A DNA stretch of 56,166 nt from an uncultured Candidatus Saccharibacteria bacterium. Its GTDB lineage: Bacteria; Patescibacteriota; Minisyncoccia; Phycocordibacterales; UBA9973. How positions within the stretch are numbered: position 1 is the first letter of the stretch; the number at the start of each line of letters is the position of its first letter. Positions 10,557 to 43,697 of the stretch are shown here, piece after piece. The position numbers and the translations under genes are program-made. The notes beneath the pieces are model-generated. The model did no database searches. It was not told where the DNA came from and saw nothing but the letters and a program-made list of their open reading frames with translations. The stretch covers positions 300,410-356,575 of the forward strand of contig CAZGOI010000001.1 in assembly GCA_964527185.1 (NCBI GenBank), written 5' to 3'.

Positions 10557-11012
10557 ATGTATCTAAACAAAGCATTCCTCATCGGCAATCTAACTCGTGA
10601 CCCAGAGCTCAAGGCCCTGCCATCTGGCATAAAGGTCTGTTCTTTCTCTATCGCTACAAATCGCGTTTGGAAAGATAAAAATGGCGCTCGCCAAGAAGCC
10701 GCAGACTACCACAACATCGTTGTCTTTGGTCGCCAAGCCGAAACTGTCGCCCAGTATATGAAGAAGGGTTCACAAGTTATGATCGAAGGTCGCATGCAAA
10801 CAAGGAGTTGGGATGATGCCGCATCTGGCACCAAGAAATACCGCACCGAAGTCATTGCCGATCGAGTTCAATTTGGTTCGTCAGGTGGTGGTGCAGGCGC
10901 TAGTGTCAAACCGCAAACGAGTCCTTCAAAAAAAGACGAAGAAGATGACAACGAACTCGATACTATCGAATACCCAGAAGAGCAAATCAACGCCGAAGAT
11001 ATACCATTTTAA
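10557..11012 (+). CDS. ssb: Single-stranded DNA-binding protein
   Basis: LNKAFLIGNLTRDPE, EGRMQTRSW, C-terminal DIPF. Confidence 0.98.
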   Translation: MYLNKAFLIGNLTRDPELKALPSGIKVCSFSIATNRVWKDKNGARQEAADYHNIVVFGRQAETVAQYMKKGSQVMIEGRMQTRSWDDAASGTKKYRTEVIADRVQFGSSGGGAGASVKPQTSPSKKDEEDDNELDTIEYPEEQINAEDIPF

Positions 11013-11968: not shown

Positions 11969-13130
11969 GATTGTGTTTAAGTTGCGGAATATAATATAGC
12001 CCAGAAAGCATTATGACTGACAGCACTATGAATAAGAATTTAAAAGGTAAAAATACAAAAGAGAAGGTAGCTATAAGCGGGGCAATGACATAAGAGAGTG
12101 GTGTCATATCACGAAAAACGCCAAGCAGGTAAGCTTCTTCTTCTTTTACATGAGTGAAAAAATATATTTCAGACGTAGTTTCTATGATACTTGCCCCAAC
12201 TCGAGTCATAAACAGTATCATAGCCCAGAGAGTGATATTTTTTACTGTTATAAAAGGTATAGAAGCCGTGAAACCGATGATGATGAGAAAGCCAATATAT
12301 AAAAGCGTTCTTTTTTTGATTCCATATTTATCGATCAGAAGTCCGGTCGGTAGACCAAATATAACAAAAGGAATAAGCATGACAGTAAATATAACCCCGA
12401 TTTGATCCCAACCAAAACCAATATGTTTATTTAAATAAATTGGTGTATAGACCACCATAAGAGCGAAGAAAAATTGCAAGATAAAATTTATAATTGTGAT
12501 TGCAAGGATGTGCTTGTTCTCTTTTAAATATCTATAAGTTTTCAAGAATGGGGTGCGTTTGTACTTTTTATCTTTAAAATCGCCAACCGATAAAAATAAC
12601 CCGAGCGTCATGACGATTACTGTGACAAGAGCGACGACGTAAACTGCGACATAGCCACCGTCTTCTGTTACAAGAAGGGCGGTTACAAGAGGCGACAATA
12701 CCCAAGCTAGATTTGTGATAGTTAGATAAAGCCCCCGAGTTCGACCAATTGTCTCGGGGTTGCCAAAGTGTTCGACGAATACATCAAGACAAAGTGATAT
12801 CAAAACGTTGGTGATCAGTATAAGAATAAATGATATTGCGGTTAACCACGGATTAAGCGATGTTATCAAGAAAGCCAAAGAAATCATGTTTATAAACAAA
12901 AGACCGGTGATGAGTTTTCTGTTACCGAAATGTTTCAAAATATTTGTACTAACAGAAAGAAAAATAATCGTGATTATCGCCGCAGTCGTGTAGAGTACAC
13001 CAACGTATTTTTCAGAAATTATTTTTGTCAGAAATGTCGAGTTGACGTAGGCCGAAAGAGATATATGCAACGTAAAAAGAAACGACAGTGCATACATTTT
13101 GTTTATTTTCGATAGCCTCATATTAGACAC
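11937..13130 (-). CDS. MFS transporter
   Basis: About 12 hydrophobic segments; GLLIDKYGIKKR loop motif. Confidence 0.85.
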   Translation of the reverse strand: MSNMRLSKINKMYALSFLFTLHISLSAYVNSTFLTKIISEKYVGVLYTTAAIITIIFLSVSTNILKHFGNRKLITGLLFINMISLAFLITSLNPWLTAISFILILITNVLISLCLDVFVEHFGNPETIGRTRGLYLTITNLAWVLSPLVTALLVTEDGGYVAVYVVALVTVIVMTLGLFLSVGDFKDKKYKRTPFLKTYRYLKENKHILAITIINFILQFFFALMVVYTPIYLNKHIGFGWDQIGVIFTVMLIPFVIFGLPTGLLIDKYGIKKRTLLYIGFLIIIGFTASIPFITVKNITLWAMILFMTRVGASIIETTSEIYFFTHVKEEEAYLLGVFRDMTPLSYVIAPLIATFSFVFLPFKFLFIVLSVIMLSGLYYIPQLKHNHENRLPYQNK

Positions 13131-15078
13131 TCAAAAGCACGGGGATGACGAGTGGTCGCTTGGCAGTCTTTTGATACAAGAATTTTGAGATATTGTCTCC
13201 CAAGTTAGTCTTGATAATGTCAAAGTTTATAGGGTTCATGCCACGAGCGCCGTCCTCGATAGTTTTCTTTATGATCAGTCGCACTTGGTGCAAGAGTTCC
13301 TGATTTTCTTTCAAATAAATAAAACCTCGTGAAATTATATCTGGCGACTTGCGGAGTTTGCCCGAGACCGAGTCGATGGTGGCGATGAGGACGAACATTC
13401 CGTCTTGGGCAAGCATTTGCCTGTCACGGATGACGACTTCTTGCTCATCGCCAACCGAGAATCCATCGACCATCATTGGTCCTGATGGAGCCTTTTCTTT
13501 TCTAACTGTGATTTTATTGCCGCTATCGACGATCTCGATTATCGAGCCGTTGTCTGGTACAACAATATTCTCCTCACTCATACCGAGCGACATAGCGAGT
13601 TCTTTGTGCGCGACCAGCATCGAATGCCAGCCATGGATAGGTATGAAAAATTTTGGATGAGTTTTTCGATGCAACCACTTTATATCTTCTTGGTTGCCGT
13701 GACCGGTGGCGTGGATATATTCCTCTGAAGTTCTATAACTTATAATCCGAACACCGTGGCGAGCCAGGTTGTCTTTCATGTGTTGAACAGACATTTCATT
13801 TCCTGGCACGATCGAAGCCGAGAGTATGATGGTGTCACCCTTTCTGATGGTAAATTTTTTGTGAGTTTTATTTGCGGCGCGATTGAGCGATGCAAATTCT
13901 TCACCTTGGGCGCCGGTCATGAGGATGATTAATTTATTTGGTGGATAGTTATCGACATCTTCGACGGGGATGATCGTGCCTTTTTTAGGTTTGAATAATC
14001 CAGCTTGCTCGCAAACTTCCATATTTGTTTTAAGTGACCTACCATCGAGCACAACTTTCTTTCCAAATCGTTCTGCGATCTCAACTATTTTAACAAGTCG
14101 AGTAATATGCGAAGCAAAAGCGGCGATGATGATTCGCCCGGTACCTTGCTTGATCAATTTCTCAAGGCCTTCATGGACTTTTATTTCAGGCAAAGCATAG
14201 CCTTCATTTTCGACGTTTGTCGAATCAGTCAAAAGGAGCAGAACTTTTTCTTTATCAAAAAATGCATACTCTTTTTCTTCAGCCTCTGTAACTTTTCCAT
14301 CAATCTGGTCGAGTTTGTAGTCACCCGGTGTAACAATGAGGCCGTATGGAGTCTCAATCACTATGCCCATCGAGTCTGGCACGGTGTGGGTCACGCCGAA
14401 AAATCTTATTTTCATATCACCGACATAAATGACGGAATCTTTTTCAACAATATGGACATCAAGCGGTGGCAGGTGGGGGAATTCTTCTTGACGTTTCTTC
14501 ATTAAAAGGACAGAAAGATTTCTGGAATAAAGCGGCGGATTGCCGATGCGGCTCATGACAAGCGGAATACCGCCGATGTGGTCAAGGTGGCCGTGGGTCA
14601 CGAACATGCCGCGGATTTTATCTTTGCGTTCCTCAAGGTATGTCGTATTCGGAATTATATAATCGATTCCAGGGGTATCTTCTGTTTTAAACTGCATACC
14701 AGCGTCTATGACTATGATATCGTTGCCGATCTCGATAGCGGTCATATTCTTACCGATTTCTTCAACTCCGCCGAGTGGTATAACGCGAATAACCCCCTTG
14801 TCAGGCGGAGGAATAAGATGTGTTTTCTTTACAGCCCTCGGGTTTTCGATTGGAGCTGTAAGTTTTGATTTACGAGATCCTTTGTTGTTGACGTATTGAT
14901 AACTACCTCGTGATTTTGCTTGGGGTCCTGATTGCTTGGTGTAAAAGCCAGATCTTTTAACTTGGCCCGGATGATTGGGCGAAGAAGGCTTGTGCAGGGT
15001 TCGTACCAAGTTTCTTTTACCGTGAAATCTGTTTCCACCTATTCGTTTTCTACTACTGTTGTGCTGTGGTTCATTCAT
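13123..15078 (-). CDS. rnj: Ribonuclease J with a basic, disordered N-terminal extension
   Basis: IPLGGVEEIGKNMT, THGHLDHIGG, HATGH, PIHG. Confidence 0.96.
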   Translation of the reverse strand: MNEPQHNSSRKRIGGNRFHGKRNLVRTLHKPSSPNHPGQVKRSGFYTKQSGPQAKSRGSYQYVNNKGSRKSKLTAPIENPRAVKKTHLIPPPDKGVIRVIPLGGVEEIGKNMTAIEIGNDIIVIDAGMQFKTEDTPGIDYIIPNTTYLEERKDKIRGMFVTHGHLDHIGGIPLVMSRIGNPPLYSRNLSVLLMKKRQEEFPHLPPLDVHIVEKDSVIYVGDMKIRFFGVTHTVPDSMGIVIETPYGLIVTPGDYKLDQIDGKVTEAEEKEYAFFDKEKVLLLLTDSTNVENEGYALPEIKVHEGLEKLIKQGTGRIIIAAFASHITRLVKIVEIAERFGKKVVLDGRSLKTNMEVCEQAGLFKPKKGTIIPVEDVDNYPPNKLIILMTGAQGEEFASLNRAANKTHKKFTIRKGDTIILSASIVPGNEMSVQHMKDNLARHGVRIISYRTSEEYIHATGHGNQEDIKWLHRKTHPKFFIPIHGWHSMLVAHKELAMSLGMSEENIVVPDNGSIIEIVDSGNKITVRKEKAPSGPMMVDGFSVGDEQEVVIRDRQMLAQDGMFVLIATIDSVSGKLRKSPDIISRGFIYLKENQELLHQVRLIIKKTIEDGARGMNPINFDIIKTNLGDNISKFLYQKTAKRPLVIPVLLSV

Positions 15079-17557: not shown

Positions 17558-17608
17558 CCTGCTTCCATTTGAGATAAAACTCGGCTCTAAGAGTTTTTTT
17601 GTTTGCGC

Positions 17609-17938
17609 TTAATCTGTTACAGGATTTTCAGCAATTTCCTTTTTTGTTTTACCCCAAAACTCCACCTCATATATGAACCGGTCTTCTTCGCTGTTGCCAT
17701 GACCTTCGTAAAGAATTCTTGCGTACCTGCATCCTATACCAAGGTCTTTAAGATAATACTTAAGCGAAACAGACCAAAAATCTTTTTCCCCGAACAACGG
17801 AGAAAAACTTTTAAATGTTTTCTTTTGGCCTGTGCCCGGTGGGTATTTTTCCAAGGTTGCCTTTTCATATAAATATACAATCCAGTAGAAAATACTTAAT
17901 AAAAGTAAAACATCAATAATCGTTTTTATTGTTTGCAT
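17609..17938 (-). CDS. Hypothetical protein with an N-terminal TM helix
   Basis: 109-aa ORF preceded by AGGAGG and a TTGACA promoter-like sequence. Confidence 0.7.
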   Translation of the reverse strand: MQTIKTIIDVLLLLSIFYWIVYLYEKATLEKYPPGTGQKKTFKSFSPLFGEKDFWSVSLKYYLKDLGIGCRYARILYEGHGNSEEDRFIYEVEFWGKTKKEIAENPVTD

Positions 17939-18082
17939 TTTTTCCTCCTTTTTATTTTGTTTGAAATGTGAATTTTCTCAAGACAGTTTAGTAGTAAAAC
18001 TTGACTTTGTCAAGGTTTTCTCGTTCTCTCACGAAAGCCATACCAATGGCTTTCTCCCGCACAAACTCACTTTGTTCGTTTG

Positions 18083-18166
18083 TGCCGGGGAGAGGACTTG
18101 AACCTCCATGAGTGTAACCTCGCTTGCTCCTAAGGCAAGTGCGTCTGCCAATTTCGCCACCCCGGC
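18083..18166 (-). tRNA. tRNA-Leu(TAG)
   Basis: GCCGGGG acceptor stem, CTTGC-CT-TAG-GA-GCAAG anticodon arm, long variable arm, GGTTCAAGTCC. Confidence 0.95.
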
Positions 18167-18191
18167 ATTATTTAATTCCGACGCCTAGTTG

Positions 18192-18263
18192 AGGCGTGGG
18201 CGGGAATTGAACCCGCGTATGGCGGTTTTGCAGACCGCAGCGTTACCACTTCGCCACCACGCC
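18192..18263 (-). tRNA. tRNA-Cys(GCA)
   Basis: GGCGTGG acceptor stem, GCGGT-CT-GCA-AA-ACCGC, GGTTCAATTCC, U73. Confidence 0.95.
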
Positions 18264-18285
18264 ATATTTTAACAATTAACATCAT

Positions 18286-18338
18286 GACCGCAGCGTGGAC
18301 TCTATCCGCTTCTGGCGGAACTTCGCCACCACGCCATA
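18286..18338 (-). repeat. Duplicated 5' half of tRNA-Cys with the D-loop replaced by a 24-nt hairpin-containing insert
   Basis: GACCGCAGCGT and CTTCGCCACCACGCCATA are identical to the tRNA (+ strand); TACCA is replaced by GGACTCTATCCGCTTCTGGCGGAA. Confidence 0.85.
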
Positions 18339-18347
18339 ACCTGTATC

Positions 18348-18674
18348 CTAACTTTTCGGAAGCAATTCGTCAATTTTCTGCCGATTTTTTTCTCCTTCAT
18401 CTATCTCAACATCAAGATATGGAATCGGGTTTACCCGCAATCTCTCGCTTATATATTTTCGCATCTCGCCTAGGTTGCGTTTTATAAAACCAAATGCCGC
18501 AGCTTCTTTTTCTTCGGGCAAGACTGTCACCATGATTTTTGCTTTTTTGTTGTCACTTGAAAGCATTACCCGAGTGACGGTTATGAGGGCGCTTCGGCCA
18601 GCTTCGCGTTCTATGAATACGGCTGCGAGCTCCCTGATCTGGTTTGTAATTTTTTCATTTCTAAAGTCACCCAT
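18348..18674 (-). CDS. rbfA: Ribosome-binding factor A
   Basis: ITVTRVMLSSDNKKAKI...IPYLDVEIDEGEKN; downstream of infB. Confidence 0.88.
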   Translation of the reverse strand: MGDFRNEKITNQIRELAAVFIEREAGRSALITVTRVMLSSDNKKAKIMVTVLPEEKEAAAFGFIKRNLGEMRKYISERLRVNPIPYLDVEIDEGEKNRQKIDELLPKS

Positions 18675-18675
18675 G

Positions 18676-20187
18676 TTATTTGACTACCATTATAAAAGCT
18701 TCGAGGGTATCGCCACCGGCAATTTCTATTTTCGAATCGACGAGCGCCCCGCACTCGCTGTCTTCGAGTATTTCTTTGGTTTTGATCTTGTTCATCTGGA
18801 GACCGATAATCTTGCCACGGCCGATTTCATTTTCTCGCCTTATAATTCTAACATTGCTACCCTCGGCGATCTGCCCGGTGGTGACTTTACCGCCGATGAC
18901 CTGTTTGTCCTTGGTGGCACTGAAAATTTTTAAGACCTTCATGCTGCCTATAACTTCGACTTGCTCTTCTCTCGGTCGTCTTTCTTCAAAAACTTCTTTT
19001 AAAAAGTCTATCAGCTTATAAATAATATCGAAAAACTTAATATTGGCGCCGATTGTTTCATTCAAATCTTTCGCTCCATTTTCAATTTTAGTATTAAAAC
19101 CAAAAACTATTGTCTCACGGCTGACACTTGCCATTTTGAGGTCAGATTCATTGATAGCGCCGACGCCAGTATGGATTATTTTAAAAGACAGGTCAGTCGT
19201 ATTTAATTTTTCAATTTCTTTCTCGATCGCTTCGATCGTCCCAGAGACGTCGGTCTTCAATATAATCGGCACAATTTTTTTGGCTGAAATCACAATATTG
19301 GAATCTTTTTTATTTGAAAGTTTTTCTTCTTTTATGATGCGCACATATTCCTCTGCATCTTTTTTGTTTGTAAATGATTCAAATTCACTGCCGACATCTG
19401 GTAGGGAATCGAATCCGACAAGTTTTATCGGCGAAGAAAACATCGCCTCTTTGATTGGTTTGCCTGCAAAATTTTCAAGGACCCTGGTTGTGGTGATCGC
19501 TTCGCCGACAGCGACAAACATTCCAGACGCAAGCGAACCATCTTTGATAATGGCTGTTGCCGATACACCGCGTTTCGGGTCGCGATGGGCTTCGATGATT
19601 ATTCCGGTCGCGAGCCTATTTTTATCTCCATTAAAAGAATGCAGAGCCGCCACTAGTAGTATCATATCGAGCAGTTCATCTACCCCAGTGCCGATTTTTG
19701 CAGAAATTGGGACAAATGGAATGTCGCCGCCTAACCCCTCGAGGTAAATTCCTTTCTCGACCAAATCCATTTTTACTTTATCGATGTTTGCATTTGATTT
19801 ATCGATTTTATTTATAGCAACTATGTATGGAACATTGTTTTCGATAATGGTGTTATAGGCTTCGAGTGTCTGGGCTTTGACACTATCTTCAGCTGATAAA
19901 AGCAATATGGCGATATCAGCGGCCGAGGCTCCGCGGGCTCGCATTTTAGAAAAGGCTTCGTGGCCGGGTGTATCTAGAAATGTTATTTTCTTGTCACTGC
20001 CATGTTCGTCTTTATGCAAAACTTCATAGGCGCTGATCTGCTGGGTTATACCGCCGGCTTCATCGGCGACGACATTGGTCTTACGAATATAATCAAGCAA
20101 GGTCGACTTGCCATGGTCGACGTGTCCCATGACTACGACGACAGGGGGACGCTCGATAATATTCGGCTCTAATTTTTTTGTATTCAT
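18676..20187 (-). CDS. infB: Translation initiation factor IF-2 (lacking the N-terminal domain)
   Basis: [32 protein letters not shown]. Confidence 0.97.
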
Positions 20188-42155: not shown

Positions 42156-42404
42156 CTATATCAAACCACTAATCAATCCTAACTTCTTTTCTCTTCTCCA
42201 TCCCTTGATCTCGCTTTCTCGATGTCTAGCTTCTTTTAATGTCGAAAAACTCTCGGAATATTTTAAAATTACAGGTCTACGAGTTTTAGTATAGTGGGCT
42301 CCCCATTTTGAATTATTGTGTTGTTTTAATCTACGTTCTAGATCATTTGTACAACCCACATAAAAAGATTTATCGGCGCATTCGAGGATATAAACAAAAT
42401 GCAT
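42156..42404 (-). CDS. Small GIY-YIG nuclease (YhbQ/UPF0213-like)
   Basis: FVYIL...FYVG.T.DLERRLKQHN...EARHRE. Confidence 0.92.
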   Translation of the reverse strand: MHFVYILECADKSFYVGCTNDLERRLKQHNNSKWGAHYTKTRRPVILKYSESFSTLKEARHRESEIKGWRREKKLGLISGLI

Positions 42405-42512
42405 AAATTAATTCTACCTCGTCGTCCTTACTTTGTCAGGACTCGCTTGGTATCTTCGTCGCAAATAAAAACAATATGGGCCGAAGGCTCTGAGGAGCAG
42501 AGCGACGAAGAG

Positions 42513-42583
42513 CTGGGGGATAGGGACTCGAACCCCAATTTACGGGACCAAAACCCGGCGTCCTACCATTAGACGATCCCCCA
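42513..42583 (-). tRNA. tRNA-Gln(TTG)
   Basis: TGGGGGA/TCCCCCA acceptor stem, CGGG-TT-TTG-GT-CCCG, GGTTCGAGTCC. Confidence 0.95.
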
Positions 42584-42592
42584 AAATGTTTT

Positions 42593-42835
42593 TTAATTAT
42601 TGAATATTGTTTTCAAAAACTTTCTACCTGATCCTGATTTTAAGTACTTTTCTCTTTTTCTGGCTTCTTCCCTAGTTCCATACATCTCTTTATGGATAAT
42701 TTCCCAAGGAAAGTAGTTTTTTGTAAAAAAAGATTTACCTGAATTATGTTCTCTTAAACGACGTTCAATGTTATCTGTCATACCTACATAGGATTTCTTG
42801 GCGACTTTGCTTTTCAGTATGTATACAAAATACAT
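42593..42835 (-). CDS. Small GIY-YIG nuclease
   Basis: FVYIL...SYVGMTDNIERRLREHN...EARKREKYLKSGSGR. Confidence 0.92.
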   Translation of the reverse strand: MYFVYILKSKVAKKSYVGMTDNIERRLREHNSGKSFFTKNYFPWEIIHKEMYGTREEARKREKYLKSGSGRKFLKTIFNN

Positions 42836-42849
42836 TGTGTAATTATAAC

Positions 42850-42928
42850 ACCAAAACCTGGCGTCCTACCCGCCTCGCATCGACAAGCTCTGCGAGTCGA
42901 GGCGGGCCATTAGACGATCCCCCAAAAT
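42850..42928 (-). repeat. Duplicated 5' half of tRNA-Gln with a 38-nt palindrome inserted in the D-loop
   Basis: Matches the tRNA from its leader through the anticodon loop (one substitution). Insert CCCGCCTCG...CGAGGCGGG at 42869-42906. Confidence 0.9.
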
Positions 42929-43259: not shown

Positions 43260-43697
43260 ATGAAAAAAACTTTTGCAATATTTACATTATTTATAGTTTT
43301 CCTTGGAGTTGGTTTTGCTATGGCCCCTGCCAAATCTGAAGCTGGCTTTGGTCTGTCTATTAGTTTTGGCCTCGGTAACAATTATGGCTATGGAAATGGC
43401 TATAGTAACTACGGCTATGGCTACCCATATTCTGGTTACGGCTACAATAATTATGGTGGCTATAACAATAATTATTATTCAAACTATAGCGGCTACAATA
43501 ACAATTACTACAACAATGGCTATTCTAACTATGGTTACAACAATTACTATAATCCAGGCTATAGCTACTACACTGGTGGCGATATATCTCCAACAGGTGG
43601 TTACTACAATACTGGCTACACATACTATCCGTCATATTCTGGTTATCAGTACGGTTATGGATACGAATATGTAAACTGCTGGACAAATGCTTGCTAA
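43260..43697 (+). CDS. Secreted Tyr/Asn/Gly-rich low-complexity protein
   Basis: Signal peptide ending AKSEA; TTGACA-17-TATAAT promoter; own terminator. Confidence 0.75.
   Translation: MKKTFAIFTLFIVFLGVGFAMAPAKSEAGFGLSISFGLGNNYGYGNGYSNYGYGYPYSGYGYNNYGGYNNNYYSNYSGYNNNYYNNGYSNYGYNNYYNPGYSYYTGGDISPTGGYYNTGYTYYPSYSGYQYGYGYEYVNCWTNAC

Follow-up and report, generated by a model that had tools for sequence, protein, structure and literature searches.

A 56,166-nucleotide (nt) stretch of contig CAZGOI010000001.1 from an uncultured Candidatus Saccharibacteria bacterium (here, the window) contains a tRNA-Cys(GCA) gene that is preceded by a truncated second version of its own front end, in which a GC-rich hairpin takes the place of part of the D-loop. 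We propose that this half-copy is what remains of the front end of the original tRNA-Cys gene, now dead but still lying directly behind that gene's conserved promoter, and that the gene was rebuilt 72 nt downstream. With a probability of roughly 0.5, the remnant is a recent footprint of a tRNA-invading process, involving a hairpin and a small nuclease, that is seen complete at the tRNA-Gln gene 24 kb away in the same genome. An earlier note on this DNA had described the structure as a 5' half of tRNA-Cys duplicated upstream and had read it as the scar of a recurrent, D-loop-targeting mechanism after loss of its nuclease; the description of the letters held throughout, and parts of the interpretation had to be recast.

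The tRNA-Cys locus and its ancestral arrangement

Read along the minus strand, infB and rbfA are followed by the half-copy structure, the intact tRNA-Cys(GCA) and tRNA-Leu(TAG) (Table 1). As the earlier note had it, the copy runs from the leader to the edge of the anticodon loop and ends about 22 nt upstream of tRNA-Cys; its two blocks match the intact gene at every base, are collinear with it, and are offset upstream by exactly 72 nt. Block A consists of the 3-nt leader TAT and GGCGTGGTGGCGAAGT (tRNA-Cys positions 1-16), and the 11-nt block B (raw positions 21-31) takes in the 3' strand of the D-stem, position 26, the 5' strand of the anticodon stem, and the opening base of the anticodon loop. 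Between them, the insert X23 carries the TCCGC/GCGGA hairpin that had been placed at the D-loop, with TCCGC (18319-18315) pairing with GCGGA (18309-18305) to form a 15-nt hairpin, TCCGC-CAGAA-GCGGA, that has a GC stem of 5 base pairs (bp). As single-stranded DNA, X23 folds at -5.0 kcal/mol (z = -4.5), a stability equaled by 0 of 200 shuffles, and the window holds no second X23 site at up to 3 mismatches. The spacer that follows block B reads ATGATGTTAATTGTTAAAA and then TAT before the intact gene, and the first spacer after the rbfA stop likewise reads GATACAGGT and then TAT; with only 22 nt between copy and tRNA, the Cys locus carries no cargo gene, as had been stated. A permissive Rfam scan of the window (E <= 5) left the remnant unmatched and returned no further tRNA-like fragments.

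The half-copy is true DNA and not an assembly artifact. Its sequence is present in one public run only, a rock metagenome, in which a Logan unitig of 8,057 nt (depth 15.8) spans rbfA, the half-copy, the spacer, and positions 1-35 of the intact tRNA-Cys; the neighboring unitig has a depth of 16.1, and this single run contains no alternative joint skipping the 72 nt. The sequence is the same in the window and in comparison locus L001 (comparison loci are given by their L numbers). The half-copy also exceeds chance expectation. In a control set made up of about 1.5 Mb of fetched loci and the window, with 1 kb scanned upstream of each of 56 tRNAs, a tRNA had 11 nt or more of its own 5' part repeated upstream only at the window's tRNA-Cys, at its tRNA-Gln, and at L100, a locus with a GIY-YIG nuclease gene; such structures thus occur at two of the five window tRNAs and, among the other 51, at L100 alone.

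Comparison with relatives gives the direction in which the locus would have changed. RbfA homologues 75-82% identical were traced to contigs L082, L083/84, L085-L094, L110, and L111, and a sixth lineage was provided by a Candidatus Taylorbacteria genome (L002), whose IF-2 is 55% identical. In all six lineages, 8-84 nt of spacer separate rbfA from an intact tRNA-Cys, at or shortly after which several of the fetched contigs stop. GAT directly follows the rbfA stop in the spacers of the five RbfA-traced lineages and in the window's first spacer, and the 5' half of the window's tRNA-Cys is identical to that of L085. Because the first spacer is homologous to those of the relatives, which run straight into an intact tRNA-Cys, the remnant is, on this sequence comparison, the old gene front at the ancestral position, and the intact gene is displaced 72 nt downstream. 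What had been called a copy duplicated upstream is therefore the original front itself, with no added copy at that place. By the same comparison the remnant is young and lineage specific, since all 30 copied bases are identical under no obvious constraint and none of the relatives has the structure.

Two side observations concern the relatives. In L111 (1623-1706), the spacer between rbfA and tRNA-Cys has grown to 84 AT-rich nt, against 8-26 nt in the others; this expansion came without a tRNA copy and so marks the junction as an insertion hot spot. In L087 (4050-5390), a reverse transcriptase (RVT_1) beside a bAvd gene, absent from that place in other strains, looks like a diversity-generating retroelement.

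The promoter-like sequence behind which the remnant lies (Table 1) has its -35 hexamer, TTGACG, within the rbfA coding sequence, and its -10 hexamer, TA(G/A)GAT, is formed by the stop codon and the following three bases. Both hexamers, including the noncoding GAT, are kept in the five RbfA-traced lineages. The promoter scan puts the predicted transcription start at about the first bases of the remnant, so the remnant would now head the primary transcript of tRNA-Cys as a 5' leader of ~72 nt, which RNase P would cut off. The remnant probably has no function of its own. An extended -10-like sequence in the 22-nt spacer, TGTTAAAAT, was considered as a tRNA promoter and rejected, because transcription would then begin within the tRNA and because the sequence was not among the promoters that the scan called.

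Further features lie on the other side of tRNA-Cys. A hairpin 3' of tRNA-Leu(TAG), at 18050-18094, has the 3' acceptor strand of that tRNA for one of its arms (CTTTCTCCCGCACAAAC / GTTTGTGCCGGGGAGAG), and the same design occurs in relatives (L085, about 10560-10620). A subthreshold match to the DUF805b RNA motif at 17606-17641 on the minus strand (29.7 bits against a gathering threshold of 35.6; E = 2e-4) overlaps the 3' end of an unannotated 109-amino-acid (aa) open reading frame (ORF) at 17609-17938.

Table 1. Features of the two tRNA loci in the window and arrangement of the comparison loci with GIY-YIG genes
Locus	Feature	Coordinates	Strand	Remarks
Window, Cys	infB	18676-20187	-	5' of rbfA
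Window, Cys	rbfA, synteny anchor	18348-18674	-	Pfam PF02033; stop TAG 18350-18348
Window, Cys	promoter-like TTGACG, 17-nt gap, TAGGAT	18345-18373	-	promoter scan; overlaps rbfA stop
Window, Cys	first (ancestral) rbfA-to-tRNA spacer, GATACAGGTTAT	18336-18347	-	shares last 3 nt with block A
Window, Cys	block A, TATGGCGTGGTGGCGAAGT	18320-18338	-	19/19 identical to 18248-18266; BLAST E = 1.5e-5 (window search)
Window, Cys	insert X23, TCCGCCAGAAGCGGATAGAGTCC, 23 nt	18297-18319	-	in place of D-loop bases GGTA
Window, Cys	block B, ACGCTGCGGTC	18286-18296	-	11/11 identical to 18233-18243
Window, Cys	spacer, ATGATGTTAATTGTTAAAATAT, 22 nt, AT-rich	18264-18285	-	last 3 nt TAT = repeated leader
Window, Cys	intact tRNA-Cys(GCA)	18191-18263	-	ARAGORN; Rfam tRNA 67.3 bits (start called 18191/18192)
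Window, Cys	tRNA-Leu(TAG)	18166-18082	-	3' of tRNA-Cys
Window, Gln	tRNA-Gln 5' pseudo-copy (leader -4 to raw position 37)	42850-42928	-	split by 38-nt palindrome
Window, Gln	block A of pseudo-copy	42928-42907	-	22/22
Window, Gln	palindrome, 38 nt	42906-42869	-	34 nt upstream of ORF; -14.2 kcal/mol, z = -4.5
Window, Gln	block B of pseudo-copy	42870-42850	-	20/21
Window, Gln	GIY-YIG #1, 80 aa, single domain	42593-42835	-	Pfam GIY-YIG E = 2e-17
Window, Gln	intact tRNA-Gln(TTG)	42512-42583	-	ARAGORN, Rfam
Window, Gln	GIY-YIG #2 ORF	42156-42404	-	Pfam GIY-YIG E = 7e-19; upstream hairpin
L096-98	tRNA-Gln(CTG)			pierced copy upstream of nuclease, broken after position 5; copy from leader -6 (L096)
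L099	tRNA-Gln(TTG)			upstream copy broken at 7|8
L100/101	tRNA-Gln(CTG)			upstream copy broken after position 10; palindrome flipped
L102	GIY-YIG, intact tRNA-Gln, then pseudo-tRNA-Gln			D-loop and T-loop palindromes in pseudo-tRNA
L104, Dokdonia (Bacteroidota)	tRNA-Arg(TCG)			copy 1 to 21|22, from leader -3, then perfect 20-nt palindrome CCTGCCTGCCGGCAGGCAGG
L105	intact tRNA-Arg(CCT), GIY-YIG, then full-length diverged pseudo-tRNA-Arg			three pure insertions: 10|11, 21|22, T-loop
L106	tRNA-Arg(ACG)			upstream copy broken after position 9
L107	tRNA-Lys(TTT)			copy broken at 21|22, reaches anticodon loop, then ATGATG = ORF start
L108	GIY-YIG, then class-II pseudo-tRNA			one D-loop and two T-loop palindromes

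Hairpin-pierced tRNA copies beside GIY-YIG genes

The tRNA-Gln locus shows the arrangement with a nuclease gene in place, and its earlier description (blocks, palindrome, GIY-YIG ORF, and tRNA-Gln) proved accurate. The likeness in geometry that had been drawn between the two loci is real: both copies begin 3-4 nt before the tRNA, carry a hairpin in the D-loop, end in the anticodon loop, and lie upstream of the intact gene. The units in this genome look active. A 345-nt unitig (42171-42515) that holds GIY-YIG #2 and its upstream hairpin has a depth of 29.3, against 14.4 and 14.9 in its flanks, and it has a second junction at its 3' side, to a 4,484-nt contig of depth 17.2; the sample therefore contains an identical second copy with another C-terminus or continuation.

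Two further features adjoin this locus. A hairpin right after tRNA-Gln(TTG) is kept in two lineages (window, 42454-42510, minus strand; L099, 3333-3395), in the form CTTCGTCGC...CTCCTCAG.GCCTTCGGCCC...GCGACGAAG, with a 10-bp outer stem and one compensatory change. GIY-YIG #2 comes after it in the window and no nuclease does in L099; perhaps it represents another kind of hairpin that accompanies these nucleases. On the plus strand beside the cassette, an ORF at 43260-43697 encodes 145 aa with a signal-peptide-like N-terminus followed mostly by Gly/Tyr/Asn repeats (GYGYNNYGGYNNNYY...).

The Gln arrangement recurs. Homologues of the Gln-locus nuclease, at 39-68% identity, led to 12 loci from nine lineages, the hosts being Patescibacteria, one Bacteroidota genome, and IMG/VR and uncharacterized metagenomic contigs. 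At every locus except L109, which has no tRNA and no copy, the nuclease gene adjoins a tRNA or pseudo-tRNA, and a palindrome-pierced pseudo-copy is present at 11 of the 12 (Table 1); the intact tRNAs beside the gene are Gln, Arg, Lys, and Leu/Ser. The pseudo-copies covary with the local tRNA, and the ORF ends 0-16 nt ahead of the tRNA or pseudo-tRNA. A partial 5' copy lies beside the intact same tRNA at window-Gln, L096, L099, L100, L104, L106, and L107, and in L102 and L108 the pierced copy comes after the intact tRNA or after the nuclease gene. The palindromes have stems of 8-9 bp and form two families: the first, CCCGCCTCGACTCGC...GCGAGGCGGG / CCCGCCTCGACTCGC...GTCGAYGCGAGGCGGG, occurs mostly at tRNA-Gln loci, the majority of which lie in Patescibacteria-type contexts, and the second is CCTGCCTRCCGGCAGGCAGG, of which L104 has the form listed in Table 1. 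L105 carries both families, together with a third (T-loop) insert that is a hairpin outside them. All palindrome junctions that could be mapped or aligned (window-Gln, L096, L099, L100, L104, and L105) are pure insertions.

The positions of these insertions bear on the claim of a recurrent mechanism aimed at the D-loop. Recurrence stands, given the 11 of 12 pierced loci, and D-loop inserts are indeed found in other partial or pseudo-tRNAs (L102, L104, L105, L107, and L108). Specificity for the D-loop does not stand: the sites are 5|6, 7|8, 9|10, 10|11 (twice), 19|20 (twice), 21|22 (three times), and the T-loop. Because they cluster in the D-arm and the T-loop and also include 5|6 and 7|8, D-loop targeting is a tendency and no rule.

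The same association can be read from protein records. A profile search at E <= 1e-10 gave a family size of 10,167 cluster representatives, and residues Y5, Y16, R26, H30, and E62, invariant in an alignment of 33 sequences, are all kept in GIY-YIG #1. In further family members, overcalled N- and C-termini translate the palindromes (LPAGRQ, ACRQAG, and RPASTR...EAGR), fused to tRNA-derived peptides (PEWRN... and VAQLDRATVS); a palindrome-coded motif is present in 18 of the 64 members with long N-terminal heads. The architecture is apparently widespread and undescribed, with the window's Gln locus as one instance; a full-text literature search, in an incomplete library, found no description of GIY-YIG genes with palindrome-pierced tRNA copies. 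The nuclease gave no tblastn match at E <= 1e-6 against 50,697 phage records, and the Gln palindrome had 0 matches among viral contigs.

Some called proteins (P0241, P0243, P0250, and P0254) have two tandem GIY-YIG domains, each after the same tRNA-derived peptide (such as ...RDPRFESLHPS-MYFVYVL..., twice), which implies tandem arrays of a unit made of a tRNA piece and a nuclease. In L107, the tRNA-Lys(TTT) 3' of the GIY-YIG gene (795-875) has a long anticodon-loop insert (GTGCCGAGGGCAAAGCCCGAGG...) and was not called by ARAGORN; the insert may be a group I intron.

Origin of the Cys remnant

The process that we favor as the source of the Cys remnant may be pictured as follows. A GC-rich hairpin would insert into the front portion of a tRNA gene, usually accompanied by the gene for a small Ssn-like GIY-YIG nuclease with a single domain. 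The incoming DNA would bring its own copy of the tRNA leader and 5' part, so that an intact gene would be rebuilt downstream and the resident front portion would stay upstream, in two pieces parted by the hairpin. At tRNA-Cys, the nuclease ORF would have been either deleted or never present, with a nuclease from elsewhere in the genome acting in trans. Several features of the locus are consistent with such an event. The Cys copy starts at leader position -3; the corresponding starts are -4 at window-Gln, -3 in L104, and -6 in L096. X23 has its right junction at 21|22, a position also hit at the two Arg loci L104 and L105 and at the Lys locus L107, and the copy extends to the anticodon loop, as at window-Gln and L107, with the intact tRNA next. 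With leader -3 to position 16 and positions 22 to 32 copied beside the intact same tRNA, the locus shares this trait with the cassettes, and its closest geometric matches, also in polarity, are L107 and window-Gln. A hairpin outside the two families within a nuclease-associated pseudo-tRNA has a precedent in the third insert of L105. The 22-nt spacer begins ATGATG, as does the GIY-YIG ORF after the tRNA-Lys copy in L107, and with a TAA 5 nt before the tRNA it could be viewed as the stump of an ORF.

Other observations weigh against a shared process. In none of the six related lineages does tRNA-Cys have a half-copy, an ORF, or a GIY-YIG gene beside it; no GIY-YIG gene was found adjoining any tRNA-Cys, and no Cys-derived peptide occurs in 239 family members. 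Compared with the palindrome families, the Gln cassette, and all fetched loci, X23 gave alignment scores within the shuffle range, and the 22-nt spacer likewise aligned no better than shuffled sequence with the Gln locus and the fetched loci. The X23 stem is only 5 bp long, while those of the palindromes reach 8-9 bp, and X23 replaces 4 bases, whereas the mapped cassette palindromes are purely inserted. The gap between copy and gene is only 22 nt and has no ORF, so that a former ORF of 240 nt would need a near-exact deletion. The GATGTT in this spacer recalls the native sequence that follows rbfA in L085 and L111, which fits cargo-less duplication or recombination; as a whole, the spacer is no less similar to such a native sequence than to an ORF stump, either likeness resting on fewer than 10 AT-rich bases. 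Part of X23, CCGCCAGAAGCGG, matches positions 39-51 of tRNA-Cys itself, CCGCCATACGCGG, at 11 of 13 bases (shuffle p = 0.06, suggestive only). Finally, 241 million metagenome records hold no other tRNA-Cys of identical sequence with a D-loop insert of 8-38 nt. A search of the metagenomes with the pattern GGCGTGGTGGCGAAGT-N(8-38)-ACGCTGCGG gave a lone match, in a GC-rich coding region, which we put down to chance.

The claim that the remnant is a scar left after nuclease loss has no support from direct evidence: none of the six lineages has a GIY-YIG gene at tRNA-Cys where one had been suggested as a check, X23 is unlike the palindrome families, and it is a replacement and no insertion. That a nuclease gene was lost here is unproven, and we rate it no higher than that none was ever here, be it through action in trans or through a cargo-less event.

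The strongest competitor, which we consider possible if rather unlikely, is an accident independent of any nuclease. Template switching, or illegitimate or homeologous recombination with, for example, DNA acquired from a related strain, would have duplicated the promoter-proximal portion of tRNA-Cys, with the D-loop of the redundant copy scrambled from the gene's own anticodon-stem, variable-loop, and T-stem sequence and the likeness to tRNA-Gln coincidental. The match of X23 to positions 39-51 would then be meaningful, as would the GATGTTAAT in the 22-nt spacer, which may be compared with GATGTTTAAT (L111) and GATGT... (L085) in native spacers. The lack of an ORF and of any likeness to the cassette palindromes also suits an accident, as does the variation in the length of the rbfA-tRNA-Cys spacer among relatives, from 8 to 84 nt. 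However, a p value of 0.06 is not significant, and the spacer likeness amounts to 9-10 AT-rich bases. Coincidence would also have to account for a rare geometry at two of five window tRNAs that is otherwise seen only at L100, itself a GIY-YIG locus, and for a right junction of X23 that falls on the recurrent cassette site 21|22.

Alternatively, the remnant might be a selected RNA, namely, a functional 5' leader of tRNA-Cys (a 5' element stabilizing the transcript against RNase J, a modulator of processing or of RNase P, or a decoy for a tRNA-binding factor) or a small RNA. The conserved promoter, with its predicted start at the remnant's first bases, would have it transcribed; the remnant RNA can form an outer GCGUGG/CCACGC helix around the inner hairpin (-23.5 kcal/mol), and an RNase J gene lies nearby (13123-15078). 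We nevertheless regard this alternative as improbable. The fold is unexceptional (z = -1.5, with 14 of 200 shuffles as good), the element is missing in six related lineages and hence has no support from conservation or covariation, no Rfam match appeared at the permissive threshold, and the ancestral state functions without it.

Elements that integrate into tRNA genes encode a tyrosine or serine integrase, and it is the 3' part of the tRNA that they duplicate and replace. An attachment-site duplication in tRNA-Cys by a lost element of this kind, such as a phage or an integrative and conjugative element, would be in keeping with the one complete and one partial tRNA copy that integrating elements commonly leave; in the elements described, these copies are uninterrupted and stand at opposite ends of about 9-23 kb (10.1101/2022.07.05.498093). 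Here, in contrast, it is the 5' part that is duplicated and replaced, only 22 nt (Cys) or about 0.3 kb (Gln) lies between the copies, no integrase is nearby, and the leftover is split by a hairpin or palindrome, so that this explanation is effectively refuted. Least probable of all is a chimeric read or misassembly at a tRNA common to several organisms in the sample: unitigs do break inside the tRNA-Cys core, where depth rises to 75 through sequence shared with other organisms, but the junction is spanned by an independent unitig reaching from rbfA to tRNA position 35, depth is even (15.8/16.1), and the same sequence is in L001.

Some further candidates were rejected. A whole-gene tandem duplicate, which the 72-nt period (the tRNA length) might suggest, was dismissed because an ungapped comparison has no similarity past position 16. 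A group I intron or archaeal-type tRNA intron, a T-box, and a split tRNA were set aside because the remnant leaves no space for an intron core, stops in the anticodon loop without a 3' half, and gave no Rfam match.

Known systems and wider meaning

Ssn is a single-domain GIY-YIG nuclease of ~94 aa that binds single-stranded DNA at a hairpin-forming repeat and cuts upstream of that repeat; its genes are typically flanked by NTS/SRM inverted repeats of 20-50 nt, and its authors liken NTS-ssnA-NTS to an insertion sequence (PMC11893778). The Ssn clade was defined as CDD cd10448, and its role outside Neisseria was left open (Chenal et al., Nat Commun 2025, PMC11893778). A member of the system would be expected to cut single-stranded DNA in a strand-specific manner and to leave double-stranded DNA and RNA uncut. 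The Gln-locus proteins resemble Ssn in size (about 80-94 aa), in having a single GIY-YIG domain, and in an adjacent hairpin. What sets them apart is that their palindromes are embedded in tRNA pseudo-copies with an intact tRNA alongside, whereas the word tRNA is absent from the text of PMC11893778; the Cys locus differs further in having no nuclease gene and a hairpin of only 15 nt. The SRM motif, HGTCWYN(0-2)YYVSBRHN(0-5)WNVSBRGN(0-2)RNCYNB, had 0 matches on both strands of the window and 10 GIY-YIG loci (38.7 kb). The nearest sequences in the PDB to the window's nucleases are the UPF0213 proteins BH0048 and EF2693 (E = 7e-6) and SLX1.

Seg-type enzymes, which are free-standing GIY-YIG homing endonucleases, have a separate DNA-binding domain, whereas the proteins here are the 80-aa catalytic domain alone. 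The abstract on SegB of phage T4 describes a GIY-YIG gene among tRNA genes that favors inheritance of its own tRNA region, and that abstract has neither a palindrome nor a tRNA pseudo-copy (PMC2330249). For Ssn, the authors themselves draw an analogy to IS200/IS605 and REP/RAYT (PMC11893778). The likeness lies in a small nuclease or transposase that goes with subterminal or dispersed imperfect palindromes recognized as single-stranded hairpins. In IS608 and RAYT, the enzyme has the HUH Y1 fold, the target is not rebuilt, and there is a terminal hairpin pair with a fixed target tetranucleotide; here, the nuclease is a GIY-YIG protein, and neither a terminal hairpin pair nor a fixed tetranucleotide was seen. 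Archaeal noncanonical tRNA introns are likewise short hairpin inserts in the D-arm or T-loop, with a bulge-helix-bulge motif and sometimes several per gene, but they sit in the sole functional gene and are spliced out. The pierced copies here are truncated or degenerate and always beside an intact gene, in bacterial hosts, with no splicing endonuclease implied. The perfect 20-nt palindromes and the flipped palindrome of L100 speak for an element that acts at the level of DNA.

A bolder reading, which we hold to be doubtful, would make the GIY-YIG nuclease and its palindromes a "break-and-replace" selfish element specialized on tRNA genes. Palindromes would enter the D-arm or T-loop, the best conserved and loop-forming regions of a tRNA gene, probably when the gene is single stranded, and disable the resident copy, and the element would supply a replacement 5' part or whole tRNA, with its nuclease gene placed inside a strong tRNA transcription unit. 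A host losing the element would then risk an essential single-copy tRNA. The Cys remnant would be an attack in trans or one by a since-decayed cassette. If true, this would provide both a biological role for the Ssn-like family and a mechanism for the spread of its hairpins, which to our knowledge has so far gone unexplained.

In sum, the Cys remnant matters mainly as a possible empty footprint which, if confirmed, would mean that no nuclease gene need be left behind when the process acts or decays. Remnants of this kind confuse tRNA annotation and break metagenome assemblies. The larger result is the tRNA-Gln case, which is one instance of a widespread and apparently undescribed lifestyle of Ssn-like genes. 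GIY-YIG proteins like those of the window form a very large family, one large branch of which lives inside tRNA transcription units, so that tRNA genes would be a concrete natural target, with the single-stranded DNA of such genes predicted as substrate or insertion site. Together, these observations suggest a way in which an element could invade an essential single-copy gene without killing its host.

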